From a plasmid, in assembly GCF_988242995.1 (NCBI RefSeq), contig NZ_OZ547045.1: a stretch of DNA of 33,568 bases. One strand, 5' to 3'. Every line of letters begins with the position of its first letter. The stretch's first letter is position 1. Made by a program: the position numbers and the translations under genes. The notes below the pieces were generated by a model that was not told the DNA's origin, did not search any database, and saw only the letters and a list, made by a program, of their open reading frames with translations. Positions 11,159 through 30,687 of this stretch are shown here, piece after piece.

Positions 11159-11485
11159 CTATCCAATCAGCACTTTTATTTTAGCCCTAACCTCAGCTAA
11201 TACGACAGGAGGCACTTTTCCCTTTTTAACCGCGCCACGTTCCCGCCAATCAAGGCTTTTCACCTGGTCAGCCAGTACAGCGCTCCCCTCCCCGCTCATA
11301 ACCTCAAACGGATAACCTTTTATTTTTGTTGTCATAGGGCAGCACAGCAACAACCCTATTCTGCCGTTATATACCGCAGGGCTTAACACTAAGGCTGGTC
11401 TATGCCCCGCTTGTTCATGCCCTGCTTGCGGATTAAAATCCATCCATACAATATCACCGGCATCAGGAATATAGTCATTCGCCAT
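11159..11485 (-). CDS. mazF: MazF/PemK-family endoribonuclease toxin
   Basis: 108 aa; YIPDAGDIVWMDFNPQAGHEQAGHRPALVLSP ... LADQVKSLDWRERGA ... KVLIG closely resembles E. coli MazF (from memory). Confidence 0.9.
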   Translation of the reverse strand: MANDYIPDAGDIVWMDFNPQAGHEQAGHRPALVLSPAVYNGRIGLLLCCPMTTKIKGYPFEVMSGEGSAVLADQVKSLDWRERGAVKKGKVPPVVLAEVRAKIKVLIG

Positions 11486-11753
11486 TTTCTAACTTCTTCC
11501 TTCTATAGCCAACCCAGATAAACGTCAAAATGATAACGCCGCAAAGAATAAACATCAGTGCAACTGGAGTTGTATCGAGCACAGAAATAACTTGCTTACC
11601 ACCCTGATCGTCTAATGAAAAAGATTTATCATTAAACAACCTGTCTATACCCAACCATATTGAGTAAACGGCAATCCAAACCCATGCAACCTTACCGGCT
11701 ATATCCAGTAAAGCCACCACTCTTTTAAATATTTTTTTCATTGCAGGAGACAT
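11475..11753 (-). CDS. Hypothetical two-helix membrane protein inserted between mazE and mazF
   Basis: 92 aa; ATG 1 nt after mazE stop, stop overlapping mazF start by 11 nt; two hydrophobic segments. Confidence 0.5.
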   Translation of the reverse strand: MSPAMKKIFKRVVALLDIAGKVAWVWIAVYSIWLGIDRLFNDKSFSLDDQGGKQVISVLDTTPVALMFILCGVIILTFIWVGYRRKKLENGE

Positions 11754-11754
11754 A

Positions 11755-12000
11755 TTACAACACCTCTTTTCCTACTGGTGCGCCGAAAGAAATTTCCTCA
11801 TGAATATTCTCGTTAGTAACACAGGCCATCAAAGCATCCAGTGAATATTCCTTCGTTTTAACCGGCACAATAGTAATTTTCCCGTCCTCAACAGACAGCT
11901 CCACTACATCATTCACGCTTAAAGAAGCCTCCCGGATAATCGAAGAAGGGAGACGAACGGACGGGCTGTTACCCCATTTTTTAATAGTTACTTGAGTCAT
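11755..12000 (-). CDS. mazE: MazE/PemI-family antitoxin (AbrB-fold)
   Basis: 81 aa; KKWGNSPSVRLPSSI ... IHEEISFGAPVGKEVL parallels E. coli MazE (from memory). Confidence 0.9.
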   Translation of the reverse strand: MTQVTIKKWGNSPSVRLPSSIIREASLSVNDVVELSVEDGKITIVPVKTKEYSLDALMACVTNENIHEEISFGAPVGKEVL

Positions 12001-12030: not shown

Positions 12031-12237
12031 TTATCGGCTATTTAAGATGTACCAGGTTTCTTTAGCTTTAAAGAAAGCCCATACCCACGCCAGAGCTGAA
12101 GCTATACACAACGCCGTCATATTGACGAAGTTTCCCGGCGTGTATTCAGGGCCATGTAAAACAAGACCCGCCAGAGAAGCCAGGCTAATGACTATGAAAA
12201 TCAGTCCAAACATGATGTGAAAAATAAGCCAAAACAC
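12031..12237 (-). CDS. Hypothetical small membrane protein upstream of mazE
   Basis: 68 aa, two hydrophobic helices; start codon uncertain. Confidence 0.4.
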   Translation of the reverse strand: MFWLIFHIMFGLIFIVISLASLAGLVLHGPEYTPGNFVNMTALCIASALAWVWAFFKAKETWYILNSR

Positions 12238-12249
12238 TCACCACCTCCC

Positions 12250-12313
12250 GTATCAACCTTGTTGATACATTAACGCTACACTCTGTAGATTGACGTGTCA
12301 ACATTGTTGATAC
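12250..12313. promoter_or_regulatory. Cluster of palindromes in the divergent TA-operon / resolvase control region
   Basis: GTATCAACcttGTTGATAC (12250..12268), TTGACGTGTCAA (12290..12301), GTCAACattGTTGATAC (12297..12313). Confidence 0.5.
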
Positions 12314-12336
12314 AGGTAGTGTCTCATAAACGATGA

Positions 12337-12441
12337 GTTTTGTTACACCGCTCCCGACCTATCCAAAAGCATCAAAATGTATGTTGCCAGTGTAACAAAA
12401 CTCGTTACAATAGTATGTGTAACAAAAACGGTGTAACAAAA
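12337..12441. promoter_or_regulatory. Putative res (resolution) site: repeated TGTAACAAAA half-sites just upstream of the resolvase gene
   Basis: TGTAACAAAA at 12391, 12418 and 12432, inverted TTTTGTTACA at 12337; position matches res of serine resolvases. Confidence 0.5.
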
Positions 12442-12451
12442 AGCAGGACAT

Positions 12452-13036
12452 ATGAAGATAGGCTACGCCAGAAAGTCAACTAAAGAGCAAGACACATCGC
12501 TTGAGTACCAGATTGAGGCTTTACAAAAAGCCGGGTGCGAAAAGTGGTATGCGGAGCAGGTATCGAGAAGCGGTAGTAAACGGCTTAAAGCAGGTACACC
12601 AGAGTTAGAAAATTGCATCAAAGCGCTTCGCCCTGGTGACACGCTGGTTGTGTGGGCGCTAGATCGGTTGGGCGGGACTCTATTACAGCTTTTGCAGCTT
12701 ATGAATGAGCTACGCAACAAAGGCATTCATTTTGAAAGTATTAAAGAACATATCGACACACAAAGTCCAATGGGTGAAATGTACTATTCGCTCATAGCTA
12801 TTTTTTCCAATTTCGAGGTAGCCAGAAACCACGAAAGGACAATGGCCGGGCTTGCGGCTGCAAAGAAGAAAGGGCGCATTGGTGGCAGAAAACCAAAGCT
12901 ATCACCACAAGACATAAAAGAAATTAACGCGCTTGTTAAATCGCCAGAAGTTACGGTAAAAGAGATCGCGGCTCGTTTTAACGTGTCACGGCCAACGATT
13001 TACAGACACATTACCCCCGATAGTAATACTGATTAA
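12452..13036 (+). CDS. Serine recombinase of the resolvase/invertase family (plasmid multimer resolution)
   Basis: 194 aa; N-terminal GYARKSTKEQ with catalytic Ser, C-terminal HTH (VSRPTIYRHI). Confidence 0.9.
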   Translation: MKIGYARKSTKEQDTSLEYQIEALQKAGCEKWYAEQVSRSGSKRLKAGTPELENCIKALRPGDTLVVWALDRLGGTLLQLLQLMNELRNKGIHFESIKEHIDTQSPMGEMYYSLIAIFSNFEVARNHERTMAGLAAAKKKGRIGGRKPKLSPQDIKEINALVKSPEVTVKEIAARFNVSRPTIYRHITPDSNTD

Positions 13037-13068
13037 CCGGCGGCAAACGGTAGCGAAGGAGCTAAACA

Positions 13069-13953
13069 GTGACAGATAAATCAGTACCAGCGAAGCAGAT
13101 AAAAACGGTAAACACCGGAATCGCGATTAAAGAGAATCCCCCCAAAGGGGATGATATGGCATTCACCCATTCGATATTGTGTCAAGTTGGCCTCCCCCGC
13201 TCTAAAGTGGATGGCCGGGAGTTCATGAGAAAATCAGGCGATGCCTGGCTAGTTGTCCAGGCCGGCTGGCTTGATGAAGGAAGCGGCCCGGTAGAACAAC
13301 CGATCCCCTACGGCTCAATGCCCCGTTTAGCGCTCGCCTGGGTATCGTCGTATGCACTCCGCAAAAAGACCCGCGAAATACCGATCGGTAAGAGTGCTAA
13401 TGAGTTCCTGCAATTAATGGGTTTATCAGGCGGCGGCAGACAATACAAAACACTACGCGAACAAATGCACGCGCTGGCAGCTTGCCGGTTGCAGTTAGGT
13501 TTTAAAGGTCGTTCTTTCAACGGCCAGCCTGTAGAGCAATTCGATGCCTGGCAGAAAGACGACCAAAGCGGCCAGCTAAGTTTATGGCCGGGCGTAATGA
13601 CCCTTTCAGAAGGGTACTTTAATGGGCTGATTGATAGCGCCGTTCCTCTCGATAACCGCGCTCTGTACGCGCTAAAGGGTTCGGCATTGTCGTTAGATGT
13701 TTATACGTGGCTTGCGCATCGTCTACACCGCATCCAGGGCCGACCGATTAAACTTCACTGGATGAATTTACGGGAGCAGTTTGCGCAAGAGTATATGGGT
13801 AAAGACCCTGACAAAGATTTTAAGAAGAAATTTCTTCCAGCTCTGCGCGACGTACTGACTGTATACCCACAGGCGAAGGTGGATAAAGTCACCGGAGGGA
13901 TATTACTGTATCCGTCTCCCCCACCTATCCCGTTCAAGGAAGGAAAAAAATAG
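13069..13953 (+). CDS. repA: Putative replication initiator (RepA-like)
   Basis: 294 aa; immediately upstream of the iteron array and DnaA boxes, downstream of resolvase. Assignment is mainly by context. Confidence 0.65.
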   Translation: MTDKSVPAKQIKTVNTGIAIKENPPKGDDMAFTHSILCQVGLPRSKVDGREFMRKSGDAWLVVQAGWLDEGSGPVEQPIPYGSMPRLALAWVSSYALRKKTREIPIGKSANEFLQLMGLSGGGRQYKTLREQMHALAACRLQLGFKGRSFNGQPVEQFDAWQKDDQSGQLSLWPGVMTLSEGYFNGLIDSAVPLDNRALYALKGSALSLDVYTWLAHRLHRIQGRPIKLHWMNLREQFAQEYMGKDPDKDFKKKFLPALRDVLTVYPQAKVDKVTGGILLYPSPPPIPFKEGKK

Positions 13954-13975
13954 GCCCATACGGGCCTTTTTTTTA
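13951..13975 (+). terminator. Rho-independent terminator after repA
   Basis: GGCCCATACGGGCC hairpin followed by T8. Confidence 0.75.
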
Positions 13976-14056
13976 TTCACAGCAATTCCACTGCGATTTT
14001 CTGACCAGATCGGGGTAATGTGAACAAACCTGTAAAAAACCTGTTGAAACATGAAG

Positions 14057-14370
14057 TTATCCACGTACATCCGACCCCCCTGATTACCGTACATCCGACC
14101 CCCCTTGTCGTACATCCGACCCCCTAGCTTTGTACATCCGACCCCCTAAGTCGTACATCCGACCCCCTTTTTTTGTACATCCGACCCCCTATTTTTTGTA
14201 CATTAGACCCCCTGAAAATACGTACATCAGACCCCCCCTAAACCTATAAGGTGATCTCCTGTAGGTTTCCTGTAGTTTGACCGATAGCACTTAACCTATA
14301 AATTTTGCTTCTAAGAGATCAGCCTGTATGAATGCCCTCCGATAATTTATTCAATAAAATCAGTGGATAA
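14057..14370. other. oriV: DnaA-box-like sites flanking the iterons plus an AT-rich stretch
   Basis: TTATCCACG at 14057..14065; AGTGGATAA at 14362..14370; AT-rich 14280..14400. Confidence 0.7.
14065..14240. repeat. Iteron array: 8 direct repeats of GTACATCCGACCCCC at 21-24 bp spacing (last two degenerate)
   Basis: Repeat units begin near 14065, 14089, 14110, 14132, 14153, 14175, 14198 and 14222. Confidence 0.85.
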
Positions 14371-14713
14371 AATAATAAATCGAATAATTTAAGTTCAGTG
14401 TGTACGTGCCAATATCAGCAGCGGGAGCCTTTGCGCTTCCTCGCTTTTGTTGTTCGTTCCTCGCGTTGCTGCGGTACGCCTCAACAAAAGACTGCGGCGA
14501 GCGCTGCGATCTCTCAGGTAACAGATTGGGATTTAGTGCAAAGGGGGGAGGTAAAAAAGAGTGAGGCCCATCACCGGCAAGTAATGGGCCTCTGTCTTTC
14601 CTGCGAAGGAGCAGATTAGACGTTGTAAGAAGTATAGACGAAAGCAGTGTGGTATTGAAAGGGGATTCAGAGCGCCCTATATTTAATCATCAATACATCA
14701 ATTTTGGTGACTT

Positions 14714-15133
14714 ATGAAAAAAACGCTATTGAGCCTAACCCTGTTAGCTACCACCTGTCAGGCAAGCGCCCAGCCTTGCACAGTGATCTTTGAAAATGGT
14801 CAGTTAATTACGTTACCGGCGGCTGTCACTCAGGCAGACCAGGTGAAAGGGCTATCTGGTGATAATCACAACACCGGCTTAATCCTGGCATGGAACACAG
14901 CAGAACCCCGCGCAGTCTGGATGAAAAACACACCGAATCCACTTACAGCGGCGTTTATCAGTGCAAATGGCGTAATCCAGAGCGTTCAGGATATGCAGCC
15001 CAACAGCGACACCGCGCATTCATCCCTCCACCCGACCATAGCAATCATTGAGATGAGGACGGAAAAATTTAAACAGTTCAAATTATCAAAAGGCGACAAA
15101 GTCATTTCCAGCCAATGTTTCCCCCTCAAATAA
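14714..15133 (+). CDS. Hypothetical secreted protein
   Basis: 139 aa, signal peptide with ASA cleavage motif; no family recognised. Confidence 0.5.
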   Translation: MKKTLLSLTLLATTCQASAQPCTVIFENGQLITLPAAVTQADQVKGLSGDNHNTGLILAWNTAEPRAVWMKNTPNPLTAAFISANGVIQSVQDMQPNSDTAHSSLHPTIAIIEMRTEKFKQFKLSKGDKVISSQCFPLK

Positions 15134-15245
15134 CGCCTCAGAACCCCGTAGAGCCATTCAATCAGAAAAAAGCGGCCTCATGTACAGCTCAACCAAAATA
15201 GCCGCTTACAGAGCCATACAGCGCGTATATAACCAATATCGCCCG

Positions 15246-15690
15246 GCGGCACCGGCGCTAACGTGCCTGTAGGGGCGCTGGCCGCGCTGCGGCCATCCCC
15301 CCAACACCCGGATAAATCGCGCCCGGCCCGTCGCTACGCGCCAGCCCGCCCGCTCAACCGGGCCGTTGTGACGGGCCACTGTTCCGGCAGCGGCATCGTG
15401 TGACAGCCCGCTAAAACCGGCTTTGCAGGGAGGGGGTGGGCGCGTCTCCCGGTTTGATCCCGCAAGGCCCGGCAATTTGACCACGTCGCCCAGGTTGAGA
15501 TCGGCGCAGTTGCCTTTTATTTGTCGGCATCGGCGCTAAATTTAAGTAAATTTATCGTACTATATAATGATACTTAAAGTTGACTTTTGAGGGGGAAAAG
15601 CCTATACTTTATTTACGGTTAGCAATGGTGCTGACCGACCCGGAACCAGTGGCGGCAACCGCTCCGGGGAACTTGCGAAGGGGGCAAGAA
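15246..15690. repeat. CUP-like GC-rich repeat, copy A (5'-truncated; lacks the first ~198 bp of copies B and C)
   Basis: Near-identical to 18515..18959 and 20672..21113. Confidence 0.85.
15580..15636 (+). promoter_or_regulatory. Cassette promoter P1 (TTGACT-17-TATACT) with leader hairpin GGTTAGCAATGGTGCTGACC
   Basis: -35 at 15580..15585, -10 at 15603..15608, inverted repeat at 15617..15636. Confidence 0.7.
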
Positions 15691-18316: not shown

Positions 18317-18959
18317 CACTTATGGCGTTCCCTGCGGGGCGGGCTTTCGTGCTGCGCATCGAGCCAGGCAAGCTGTCTCGCCCCTTCGGGCTTCAATCCC
18401 TAACGCCTCCGGGCTGTCGCCCTCCGCGCTCCGCTTGACCCCCACGCCCTGCGCCGGACTTGCCCCGCCTACGGCGGCCCCGCCCCTCCGGGGTGGCTTC
18501 GCCATCCTCTGCCAGCGGCACCGGCGCTAACGTGCCTGTAGGGGCGCTGGCCGCGCTGCGGCCATCCCCCCAACACCCGGATAAATCGCGCCCGGCCCGT
18601 CGCTACGCGCCAGCCCGCCCGCTCAACCGGGCCGTTGTGACGGGCCACTGTTCCGGCAGCGGCATCGTGTGACAGCCCGCTAAAACCGGCTTTGCAGGGA
18701 GGGGGTGGGCGCGTCTCCCGGTTTGATCCCGCAAGGCCCGGCAATTTGACCACGTCGCCCAGGTTGAGATCGGCGCAGTTGCCTTTTATTTGTCGGCATC
18801 GGCGCTAAATTTAAGTAAATTTATCGTACTATATAATGATACTTAAAGTTGACTTTTGAGGGGGAAAAGCCTATACTTTATTTATCGGTTAGCAATGGTG
18901 CTGACCGACCCGGAACCAGCGGCGGCAACCGCTCCGGGCAATCTGCGAAGGTGGGAATT
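18317..18959. repeat. CUP-like repeat, full copy B (GC-rich body ~530 bp plus promoter/leader)
   Basis: Near-identical to 20474..21113. Confidence 0.9.
18849..18906 (+). promoter_or_regulatory. Cassette promoter P3 (TTGACT-17-TATACT) with leader hairpin
   Basis: -35 at 18849..18854, -10 at 18872..18877, inverted repeat at 18887..18906. Confidence 0.7.
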
Positions 18960-19845: not shown

Positions 19846-20005
19846 GCTTACTTATGGCGTTCCCTGCGGGCCGGGCTTTCGTGCTGCGCATCGAGCCAGG
19901 CAAGCTGTCTCGCCCCTTCGGGCTTCAATCCCTAACGCCTCCGGGCTTTCGCCCTCCGCGCTCCGCTTGGCCTCCGGGCTTTCGCCCTCCGCGCTTTGCT
20001 TGGCC
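19846..20005. repeat. CUP-like repeat fragment D (left arm only) with an internal 33-bp tandem duplication
   Basis: Matches the left ~125 bp of copies B and C; CCTCCGGGCTTTCGCCCTCCGCGCT(C/T)(C/T)GCTTGG duplicated at 19939..19971 and 19972..20004. Confidence 0.8.
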
Positions 20006-20243
20006 TTTCCAGCCGGTGCCAGCTCCGGGCCGCGAGGATAACCGGCGGGAGGCGAACTGTCCTCCACAGCTCCCCGTTCCGTTGGATGGTCTGCCGTTCC
20101 TCCATTACCGGTATTCCACACTAGCGCGGTGTGGCGTCAATAGTTCGCTTCGCCGCTTCGCGCTATTGACCCCACCCCTTGCGCCAGTGTTACACACCGG
20201 TTGTCGGAAACGACAAACCCTCCAACTACCCTACAGGTGCTTT

Positions 20244-20473: not shown

Positions 20474-21113
20474 TACTTAGGGCGTTCCCTGCGGGCCGGG
20501 CTTTCGTGCTGCGCATCGAGCCAGGCAAGCTGTCTCGCCCCTTCGGGCTTCAATCCCTAACGCCTCCGGGCTTCGCCCTCCGCGCTCCGCTTGGCCCCCA
20601 CGCCCTGCGCCGGACTTGCCCCGCCTACGGCGGCCCCGCCCCTCCGGGGTGGCTTCGCCATCCTCTGCCAGCGGCACCGGCGCTAACGTGCCTGTAGGGG
20701 CGCTGGCCGCGCTGCGGCCATCCCCCCAACACCCGGATAAATCGCGCCCGGCCCGTCGCTACGCGCCAGCCCGCCCGCTCAACCGGGCCGTTGTGACGGG
20801 CCACTGTTCCGGCAGCGGCATCGTGTGACAGCCCGCTAAAACCGGCTTTGCAGGGAGGGGGGGGGCGCGTCTCCCGGTTTGATCCCGCAAGGCCCGGCAA
20901 TTTGACCACGTCGCCCAGGTTGAGATCGGCGCAATTGCCTTTTATTTGTCGGCATCGGCGCTAAATTTAAGTAAATTTACCGTACTATATAATGATACTT
21001 AAAGTTGACTTTTTAGGGGGGAAAATCTATACTTTATTTACGGTTAGCAATGGTGCTGACCGACCCGGAACCAGCGGCGGCAACCGCTCCGGGTAATCTG
21101 CGAAGGAAAATGT
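20474..21113. repeat. CUP-like repeat, full copy C
   Basis: Near-identical to copy B over about 640 bp. Confidence 0.9.
21005..21061 (+). promoter_or_regulatory. Cassette promoter P4 (TTGACT-17-TATACT) with leader hairpin
   Basis: -35 at 21005..21010, -10 at 21028..21033, inverted repeat at 21042..21061. Confidence 0.7.
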
Positions 21114-24839: not shown

Positions 24840-25290
24840 CTATATGGCAGCCTGTTTTAGCTGTCAATCGGTTTTTGTAGTATTTCAGTAGTATTCCTGT
24901 AGTAATTCAGTAGTAACGCTTGTCGATACCGCTCATTTTTGTAGTATATCTGTAGTAATGGCTATTTCAGTTTGTAGTATTTTAGTAGTAATTCAGTAGT
25001 ATCGGTGTAGAAAACTTTCATGCAAGCATGAAAGTGGTGAATGTGAACGCTTTTTGAGCGTTTTATGCGTGTGTAAGACCTGTTTCTCCCTTAAAAAAGG
25101 CGTGTTATGGTATCCCTTAATGGCTATACACCATACGCAATTACGATTTTCATCGTAAATGCTTGAAAACAAAACAAATTATTCTAATTTGTGTTTTCAT
25201 ATGTAATACACTACGTATTACATATGTGTGTCTAAGCCGCATATATGCTAGATTTAACTGTATTACATCGGTATTACATCAAGGAAACCC
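24840..25290. other. oriT region: 11-bp direct repeats, inverted repeats and a putative nic site
   Basis: About 10 copies of (T/A)GTAGTA(T/A)(T/A)nn in 24876..25010; IR ACTTTCATGCaaGCATGAAAGT (25014..25035); IR CATATGTAATACactacGTATTACATATG (25198..25226) followed by GTGTGTCT|AAGCC. Confidence 0.65.
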
Positions 25291-30419: not shown

Positions 30420-30687
30420 CAAGAAGGGGTCAGTTTGGAGATCGGAAATTTTTGTACGTTAAGCGCATTATTTAACCAATCTTGGTTCGTAAGGGGTTGA
30501 TTTTGCGTCAGTGGCTATCGCTTTTAAGTTGTCGCTCTTGCAGTATCGCATTTAGGTTATCCGATTAAGGTCAAACCTCTGAAAATGCCGTATAGCGCGG
30601 GAGTACACCCTATTGCTATAGGTAAGTCTGTTCAAAAAACAGGCTTACCGTACAATAATTCTCTATATCCAAACTGACCCCAAGAAG
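30420..30687. mobile_element. MITE-like non-autonomous element: 12-bp terminal inverted repeats flanked by a 7-bp direct repeat
   Basis: CAAGAAG (30420..30426) - GGGTCAGTTTGG (30427..30438) ... CCAAACTGACCC (30669..30680) - CAAGAAG (30681..30687); 254 bp between TIR ends; no ORF inside. Confidence 0.55.

Follow-up and report, generated by a model that had tools for sequence, protein, structure and literature searches.

The window, that is, the whole stretch of 33,568 nucleotides that was analyzed, is essentially a whole plasmid, and 97% of it is collinear with the IncN3 plasmid pR16.0676_34k at about 90% identity. A serine resolvase gene is followed on the same strand by repA, and the 32-bp gap between them holds a GAAGGAG ribosome-binding site. 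The resolvase-repA order is also present in the IncW plasmid pIE321 and in a Shigella plasmid (L004), and the two genes appear to be co-transcribed. Downstream of repA lies a non-coding region, bracketed by two terminator-like hairpins, that contains an array of direct repeats (iterons), DnaA-box-like sequences, an AT-rich region and a long hairpin (Table 1). An earlier note on this DNA placed the repeats immediately downstream of repA, which is accurate: iteron 1 begins 111 bp after the end of repA at 13953.

Table 1. Positions of genes and sequence features in and around the region downstream of repA. Positions are those of the window.
Feature	Position	Strand	Remarks
Probable expression signals of the resolvase-repA operon	12335-12442		Putative function
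Serine resolvase gene	12452-13036	+	Directly upstream of repA
repA, 294 aa	13069-13953	+	Pfam RepA_C (PF04796); cognate initiator
Bidirectional intrinsic-terminator-like hairpin AGGCCCATACGGGCCT + T8	13952-13975		Ends repA transcription at the origin edge
DnaA-box-like TTATTCACA	13973-13981	+	Left of the 14019 box
DnaA-box-like TTGTTCACA	14019-14027	-	Matches the family's left inverted box TGTGGATAA in position
DnaA-box-like TTATCCACG	14057-14065	+	8/9 to TTATCCACA; last base shared with iteron 1
Iteron 1 GTACATCCGACCCCC	14065-14079	+	Exact
Iteron 2	14089-14103	+	Exact
Iteron 3	14110-14124	+	Exact
Iteron 4	14132-14146	+	Exact
Iteron 5	14153-14167	+	Exact
Iteron 6	14175-14189	+	Exact
Iteron 7 GTACATTAGACCCCC	14198-14212	+	2 mismatches
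Iteron 8 GTACATCAGACCCCC	14222-14236	+	1 mismatch
Family-wide junction motif CCCCCCCTAAACCTATA	14232-14248	+	Marks the end of the iteron array
Seven CC(T/G)(A/T/G)TA(A/G/T) 7-mers	14243-14345	+	Proximal part of the unwinding region
DUE core, AT-rich minimum of duplex stability	14341-14395		From nearest-neighbor energies and GC
DnaA-box-like TTATCCACT	14362-14370	-	8/9 to TTATCCACA; +130 from the junction
ssi/PAS-like hairpin, arms GCTTCCTCGC and TGCGGCGAGCG	14435-14503	-	Putative active strand minus, by homology
13-bp-stem hairpin with minus-strand T-run	14563-14592	-	Terminator-like

The array spans 14065-14236 and comprises six exact and two near-exact copies of a 15-mer. The start-to-start distances are 24, 21, 22, 21, 22, 23 and 24 bp (mean 22.4), so the earlier description of eight direct repeats with a spacing of about 22 bp, the last two of them degenerate, is borne out. 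The "degenerate" ATTAGA and ATCAGA variants of iterons 7 and 8 are common in relatives. The repeat, GTAC-ATCCGA-CCCCC, is of the family form with a variable 5' half followed by ATC, two or three further bases and a C-tract. If up to three mismatches are allowed, nine matches to the 15-mer are found in the window versus 0.43 expected, and none of 100 shuffles reaches nine. The ninth match, at 13294 inside repA with three mismatches, is at chance level. TRF recovers the array as 7.7 copies of a 22-bp period and as the sole sizeable tandem array of the window, and no second iteron cluster was found elsewhere in the window.

Comparison of six IncN3-lineage origins reveals that all eight iterons are kept in register and are under purifying selection relative to the spacers between them. 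Only 5 of 120 iteron columns (4%) vary, compared with 15 of 52 spacer columns (29%; Fisher p 1.4e-5), and the iteron changes sit in the ATC-CGA segment, at positions 7-10 of the 15-mer. The rightmost part of the non-coding region is also conserved in the six IncN3-lineage plasmids. None of the 45 columns of 14556-14600 varies, while the neighboring 14504-14555 varies at 33%. The hairpin at 14563-14592 probably shields the origin from transcription that comes in from the right; a minus-strand promoter that would feed it was not identified. The segment from the repA terminator to the DnaA-box region (13968-14018) is the most diverged part of the origin, with 25 of 51 columns variable (49%), and looks as if it had been replaced in the window's lineage relative to other IncN3 plasmids.

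DnaA-box-like sequences had been reported to flank the array, and the boxes at 14057-14065 and 14362-14370 agree with this. Every DnaA box of the origin is an imperfect or relaxed match, and over the whole window boxes with one mismatch are not enriched (69 found versus 66 expected). They do cluster locally: seven lie in 13968-14400, where about 0.9 would be expected from a Poisson estimate at the window's density, although two of the seven are spacer T-runs. Both flanking boxes are conserved in position across the family of related origins described below, which is far stronger support than the scores of the single matches. A box of the TTATCCACG type occupies the same position in most family members. 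The box at 14019 is conserved in five of the six IncN3-lineage sequences, the remaining one having GTGAATAA in place of GTGAACAA.

An AT-rich stretch following the iterons, as the earlier note described it, is present, with the strongest core lying about 100 bp beyond the last iteron and not right next to it. GC content is 27-30% over 14320-14409, and nearest-neighbor energies identify 14341-14381 as the least stable 40-mer of the region, at the 99.9th percentile of the window. The interval between the last iteron and this core is occupied by seven 7-mers that start at 14243, 14258, 14269, 14281, 14295, 14323 and 14339, versus 0.17 expected; relatives have about four. These 7-mers are candidate strand-specific sites. 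Strand-specific initiator sites in the DUE have been shown for RepE and TrfA. The origin region has no strict IHF consensus site, and an Rfam scan of 12200-15600 at E<=1 returned just two sub-threshold chance matches.

The product of repA matches PF04796 with an E-value of 2.4e-21 and a score of 77 bits (cut-off 26), is 98.6% identical to its homolog L002, and is encoded by the sole annotated replication gene of the collinear plasmid pR16.0676_34k. An AlphaFold model built on 41 family sequences has a pLDDT of 89 and a pTM of 0.89. The best PDB matches of this model in a fold search are iteron initiators, with RctB domains 2-3 at an E-value of 2e-6, and further matches include RepE54 in complex with its iteron (1rep) and Rep together with iteron dsDNA and DUE ssDNA (8aan, 8ac8). 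These matches indicate that RepA_C proteins have the two-winged-helix architecture expected for the binding of one monomer to one iteron. A PDB sequence search with RepA gave no match, so that the fold search alone was informative, and NCBIfam has no model for this protein.

The end of the iteron array served to find related origins. The 17-nt junction CCCCCCCTAAACCNRTA of the window was used to scan one genome per species and was found at 112 loci. About 40 of these have a RepA homolog (52-76% identity) immediately upstream on the same strand; they come from Burkholderia, Xanthomonas, Aeromonas, Marinobacter, Acidovorax, Paracoccus, Rhizorhabdus, Azotobacter and others. The rest were discarded as chance matches without RepA. 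The RepA-bearing loci, plasmid relatives (IncN2, IncW-like and environmental) and the window itself make up a family set of 44 distinct sequences.

The order of elements common to the 44 sequences is a DnaA box on the minus strand, a DnaA box on the plus strand, the iterons, the CCCCCCCTAAACC junction, CCnnTAr 7-mers and a further minus-strand DnaA box. The first box lies near -126 from the junction, and the second, TTATCCACG, lies near -99 and abuts the first iteron. There are usually four iterons, spaced 23/34/23 bp, then the junction and about four 7-mers, and 39 of the 44 sequences have the last box at +60 to +99 after the junction. The window has eight iterons that are one base shorter than is usual in the family, with boxes at -213, -175 and +130, and its origin thus reads as an expanded version of the family plan with a DUE region of double length. 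Across the family the 3' half of the iteron (AATC, two or three bases, C-tract) is conserved, while the 5' half differs between RepA lineages. The distance between RepA sequences is weakly but significantly correlated with the distance between iterons (Mantel r 0.15, attained in 28 of 2000 permutations), the correlation being weak partly because iteron registers differ between lineages. In the IncN2 plasmid pKPC-SMH, whose RepA is 73% identical to that of the window, the origin has AAGATAAATyNCCCCCC five times, at 20-26 bp; the repeat of an untyped Shigella plasmid, also in five copies, is AAGATAAATCmGACCCCC. In both plasmids, as in the window, the last repeat is followed by CCCCCCCTAAACCTGTAAGGTGATCCTGTA.

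The closest experimentally analyzed relative is the origin of Salmonella Genomic Island 1 (SGI1), for which dependence on RepA has been demonstrated. The SGI1 RepA (S003) is 50-60% identical to IncN2/N3 RepA (Szabo et al. 2021, PMC7826253). Its origin lies just downstream of repA and consists of a conserved segment with DnaA boxes, the 16-bp repeat GGGGGHRATTATGCGY in four copies and an AT-rich region that includes an inverted repeat; in deletion analysis the loss of one repeat or of the AT-rich part abolishes replication, the repeats are shifted by RepA in EMSA, and replication is PolA-independent and IncN1-compatible (PMC7826253). The same study describes the cis elements as well conserved in IncN2/N3 plasmids and the IncN2/N3 replicon as "virtually unexplored" (PMC7826253). 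Our comparison used that description together with genome loci of the same iteron type (L083, L115 and L056). The reverse complement of the SGI1 repeat consensus is the iteron type at these three loci and at L074. Like the window, SGI1 has an IncN2/N3-related RepA, an origin 3' of repA and repeats with a C-tract (RCGCATAATYDCCCCC on the repA strand). It differs in having four 16-bp repeats with another 5' half, where the window has eight 15-mers and a DUE region about twice as long, and in its expression: SGI1 repA is served by an AcaCD-dependent promoter via a leader ORF, whereas repA of the window follows the resolvase gene.

The anatomy of the region, its conservation, the selection on the iterons, the fold of RepA and the homology to a tested origin all support the earlier reading of an iteron-type oriV for repA. 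We conclude that the region of about 14019-14400 is, with high confidence, the RepA-dependent vegetative origin of an IncN3-lineage plasmid, served by the RepA encoded upstream. The functional origin probably extends past 14057-14370 on both sides, to include the box at 14019 and the hairpin at 14435-14503. The origin is ordinary and already known in kind, having been analyzed in SGI1 and annotated in IncN2/N3 plasmids. What is specific to this lineage, judging from the comparisons, is the eight iterons, the lengthened DUE, the lack of an operator iteron and the ssi-like module, which are modest variations.

The hairpin beyond the DUE occurs also outside the IncN3 lineage. A query with 13954-14620 gives some match in 335 PLSDB records, and the context of the hairpin (14397-14522) matches many otherwise unrelated plasmids. 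The element adjoins rep genes in an IncX5 plasmid, in an Arsenophonus plasmid and in small plasmids of the RepL/MobV type. In the first two, iterons are followed by the element in the same polarity, and in the IncX5 plasmid an AT-rich region separates iterons and element. Within the family it is present in 4 of the 44 sequences, namely three of the IncN3 lineage and IncN2 pKPC-SMH. The plasmids with this element gave no match to an Rfam family, and several GC-rich metagenome matches to the arms were rejected as chance matches in other sequence.

The inner 8-bp stem of this hairpin is TTTTGTTG/CAACAAAA in the window and TTTTGCTG/CAGCAAAA in other IncN3 plasmids; apart from these two columns, the element does not vary among them. 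The stem is TTTGGCTG/CAGCCAAA in the IncX5 plasmid and CCTGA/TCAGG in the IncN2 plasmid, and metagenomic variants have unrelated stems. On this alignment evidence the stem appears to be kept by compensatory changes. The folding energy of the hairpin is only modestly better than that of shuffles (z about -1.7).

The arms of the hairpin match ColE1 at 1297-1371 on the opposite strand, collinearly, with 19/22 and 21/27 identities. The E-values, 0.006 and 0.016, are for a search against one 6.6-kb sequence, and the likeness is confined to the arms; the interior of the window hairpin is different and longer. The window reads AAGCGC where ColE1 and most relatives have AAGCGG. Measured from the RNA II/DNA switch (the origin), as inferred from RNAI, the matched stretch of ColE1 is 100-175 nt downstream, and the lagging-strand, n'-type primosome assembly site ssiA of ColE1 has been placed in that downstream stretch (PMC3167613). 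It is this match that leads us to read the hairpin as an ssi/PAS-like element, with its active strand assigned by homology. Once single-stranded, it would probably act as a primosome-assembly or priming site, and it may prime the rightward leading strand and/or load the helicase stopped at the RepA-iteron complex. The place of this element after the DUE is taken in 12 of the 44 family origins (L005, L007, L011, L028, L043, L046, L067, L069, L074, L103, L013 and L098) by a conserved GC-rich hairpin, GGGGCACCCC-loop-GGGGTTCCCCC, followed by GGCTCCCCCTCC, at about +100 to +190 after the junction.

Occurrence of the ssi-like hairpin in the same polarity in unrelated replicons (IncX5, Arsenophonus), and near RepL, would fit a horizontally exchanged origin-accessory module. 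The origin might accordingly be viewed as a composite of a RepA_C iteron core with doubled iterons and DUE and a portable hairpin like ColE1 ssiA, with the 7-mers as strand-specific RepA sites. We put this forward tentatively, as a possibility that is less likely to hold than to fail. If it is true, the hairpin module places the first primer or the second helicase and hence determines the direction of replication.

A different role for the repeats is improbable but deserves comparison with the data above. The array could be mainly a locus for copy-number control and incompatibility through handcuffing, with a subset or none of the repeats needed for initiation, as modeled on the dispensable 37-bp repeats of the IncN1 plasmid pCU1 and the control iterons of P1, F and RK2. 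In relatives four iterons at distances of 23/34/23 bp are usually enough, so that half of the eight could be surplus, and the retention of all eight in IncN3 lineages indicates selection for a purpose that it does not specify. The array, however, is at the position of the essential iterons of the family, between conserved DnaA boxes and fused to the junction and DUE; in SGI1 the loss of one of four repeats abolishes replication; and the window has no second iteron cluster. Phased short direct repeats are also typical of plasmid centromeres, and the array could be a partition centromere or be bound by a protein other than RepA (e.g., of the Stb system, or a regulator), yet the repeats track repA rather than partition genes across 44 sequences with very different backbones, their variable half changes with RepA lineage, DnaA boxes and a DUE adjoin them, and stbB and stbC of the collinear IncN3 plasmid are more than 10 kb away, all of which makes such a role exceedingly improbable. 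Equally little speaks for the region being coding or fortuitous, since the 70-aa minus-strand ORF at 13903-14115 over the first iterons, although present in a mechanical ORF list, is annotated in no relative, has a repetitive translation (GGRMY...) that is a by-product of the repeats, and accumulates substitutions that follow the repeat register and not the reading frame; it was rejected as a repeat artifact.

For the assignment as a RepA-dependent origin, a mechanism can be proposed in which RepA binding, melting, priming and copy control in the window plasmid are inferred. Each two-winged-helix RepA monomer would bind a single iteron; with a phasing of about two helical turns, the eight iterons would all be on the same side of the helix. 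The bracketing boxes at 14019, 14057 and 14362 would be bound by DnaA of the host, and the resulting nucleoprotein complex would melt the 7-mers and the AT-rich core. Loading of DnaB and the start of theta replication, independent of Pol I, would follow. Surplus RepA-iteron complexes would pair plasmids by handcuffing and so set copy number and incompatibility, and eight iterons instead of the usual four of the family may provide tighter control.

The earlier note also called the layout classical. This holds for the iterons, the DnaA boxes and the DUE, but at the rep promoter the window lacks an operator that resembles the iteron. Outside the array there is no copy of the iteron or of its conserved half, and none was found near the repA or resolvase promoter; autoregulation of RepA through an iteron-like operator, as in the textbook model, is therefore not visible. 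Not all iteron plasmids have such an operator. The sole good promoter-like site upstream of resolvase-repA is a sigma-70-like TTGCCA-16-TACAAT at 12384-12411. It is overlapped by GTGTAACAAAA sites (three direct, one inverted) that resemble resolvase sites. A palindrome, TATCAACnTTGTTGATACA, occurs twice upstream of the resolvase gene (12249-12269 and 12294-12314, in the region 12242-12442). The TATCAACnTTGTTGATACA and GTGTAACAAAA sites are probably res/operator sites that control resolvase-repA expression.

Phased iterons, DnaA boxes and a DUE are shared with mini-F ori2/RepE, R6K gamma/pi, RK2 oriV/TrfA, pPS10 and pSC101, and the two-winged-helix initiator fold is common to RepA of the window and the classical iteron plasmids. 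Classical initiators, however, are Rep_3 proteins with the origin upstream of rep, whereas the window has a RepA_C protein with the origin downstream of repA, and the inverted half-iteron operator that classical origins have at the rep promoter is missing from the window. The IncW plasmid pIE321 is closer in arrangement, with the same resolvase-repA-oriV order and a RepA that is 30% identical (E 4e-36). Its origin has an inverted DnaA-box pair abutting the first iteron, about seven iterons ACGTGAAATCGCTAAT at about 22 bp, an AT-rich region and then TGTGGACA boxes. The IncW iteron ends in CTAAT and not in a C-tract, and IncW lacks the CCCCCCCTAAACC junction. In this comparison pIE321 stood for R388 (BR000038). 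The IncW pSa/R388 origin has been defined experimentally.

IncN1 plasmids (pCU1/R46) share with the window the name "IncN", the type of conjugation backbone and the CUP regulon, but their replicon is unrelated. The iterons of IncN1 pCU1 are 37-bp repeats, and no such long array of IncN1 type is present in the window. The SGI1 RepA is less than 10% identical to IncN1 RepA, which forms a clade distinct from IncN2/N3, and the IncN1 origin is organized differently (PMC7826253).

Placement of the window in IncN3 rests on pR16.0676_34k, which has the same eight iterons and is >98% identical to an IncN3 plasmid that is itself >98% identical to pN-Cit (PMC9430514); pR16.0676_34k was used here as the reference for pN-Cit (JQ996149). 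A near-identical record from Salmonella, CP074311, is 99.6% identical over the rep region, and the lineage it forms with the window differs by about 10% from the common IncN3 plasmids. IncN2 pKPC-SMH has the same junction and the same ssi-like hairpin as the window, and "repA and its iterons" are annotated in the IncN2 literature (PMC5371602). The subgroup names IncN2 and IncN3 are inconsistent between sources for the group of p271A, pJIE137, pKPC-SMH, pN-Cit and pKP2648-34. The plasmid pTRE-131 is listed as IncN3 by PlasmidFinder in a table of PMC5641379, its backbone is >93% identical to pJIE137 and pKPC-SMH, and these two were named IncN2 by Jiang et al. (PMC5371602). The iterons of the window are nearly identical to those of the other IncN3 lineages, so incompatibility with IncN3 plasmids is to be expected.

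IncN3-type plasmids are small and very efficiently self-transmissible helpers; among Enterobacterales they mobilize plasmids for resistance and virulence (PMC9430514). Copy number, host range and incompatibility of these plasmids depend on the origin and its iterons, and the coordinates of the iterons, DnaA boxes, DUE and ssi-like hairpin can be used in mini-replicon design, incompatibility-based curing and replicon typing. As to the biology, a known design is confirmed and not a new one described.

Several other features of the plasmid were observed. In the detrended cumulative GC skew the minimum falls at 15359, some 1 kb away from the DUE, and the maximum at 30605, about half a plasmid further; this agrees with the origin assignment, but in a plasmid of 33 kb the signal is too weak to be given weight. 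Near-identical, very AT-rich 41-mers, TAAATTTAAGTAAATTTATCGTACTATATAATGATACTTAA, at 15537-15577, 18806-18846 and 20962-21002 are among the least stable DNA of the window and presumably represent the CUP (conserved upstream repeat) promoters of IncN-type plasmids. The ORFs at 15580 and 16349 have similar N-termini. Two small tandem repeats are present: one in an AT-rich region at 24877-24915 (11 bp x 3.5, GTAGTATTTCA), which might be a partition or transfer-related site, and a GC-rich one at 19937-20006 (33 bp x 2.1). A mazE/mazF-type toxin-antitoxin pair, annotated in CP074311, lies on the minus strand at 11159-12000, upstream of resolvase-repA.
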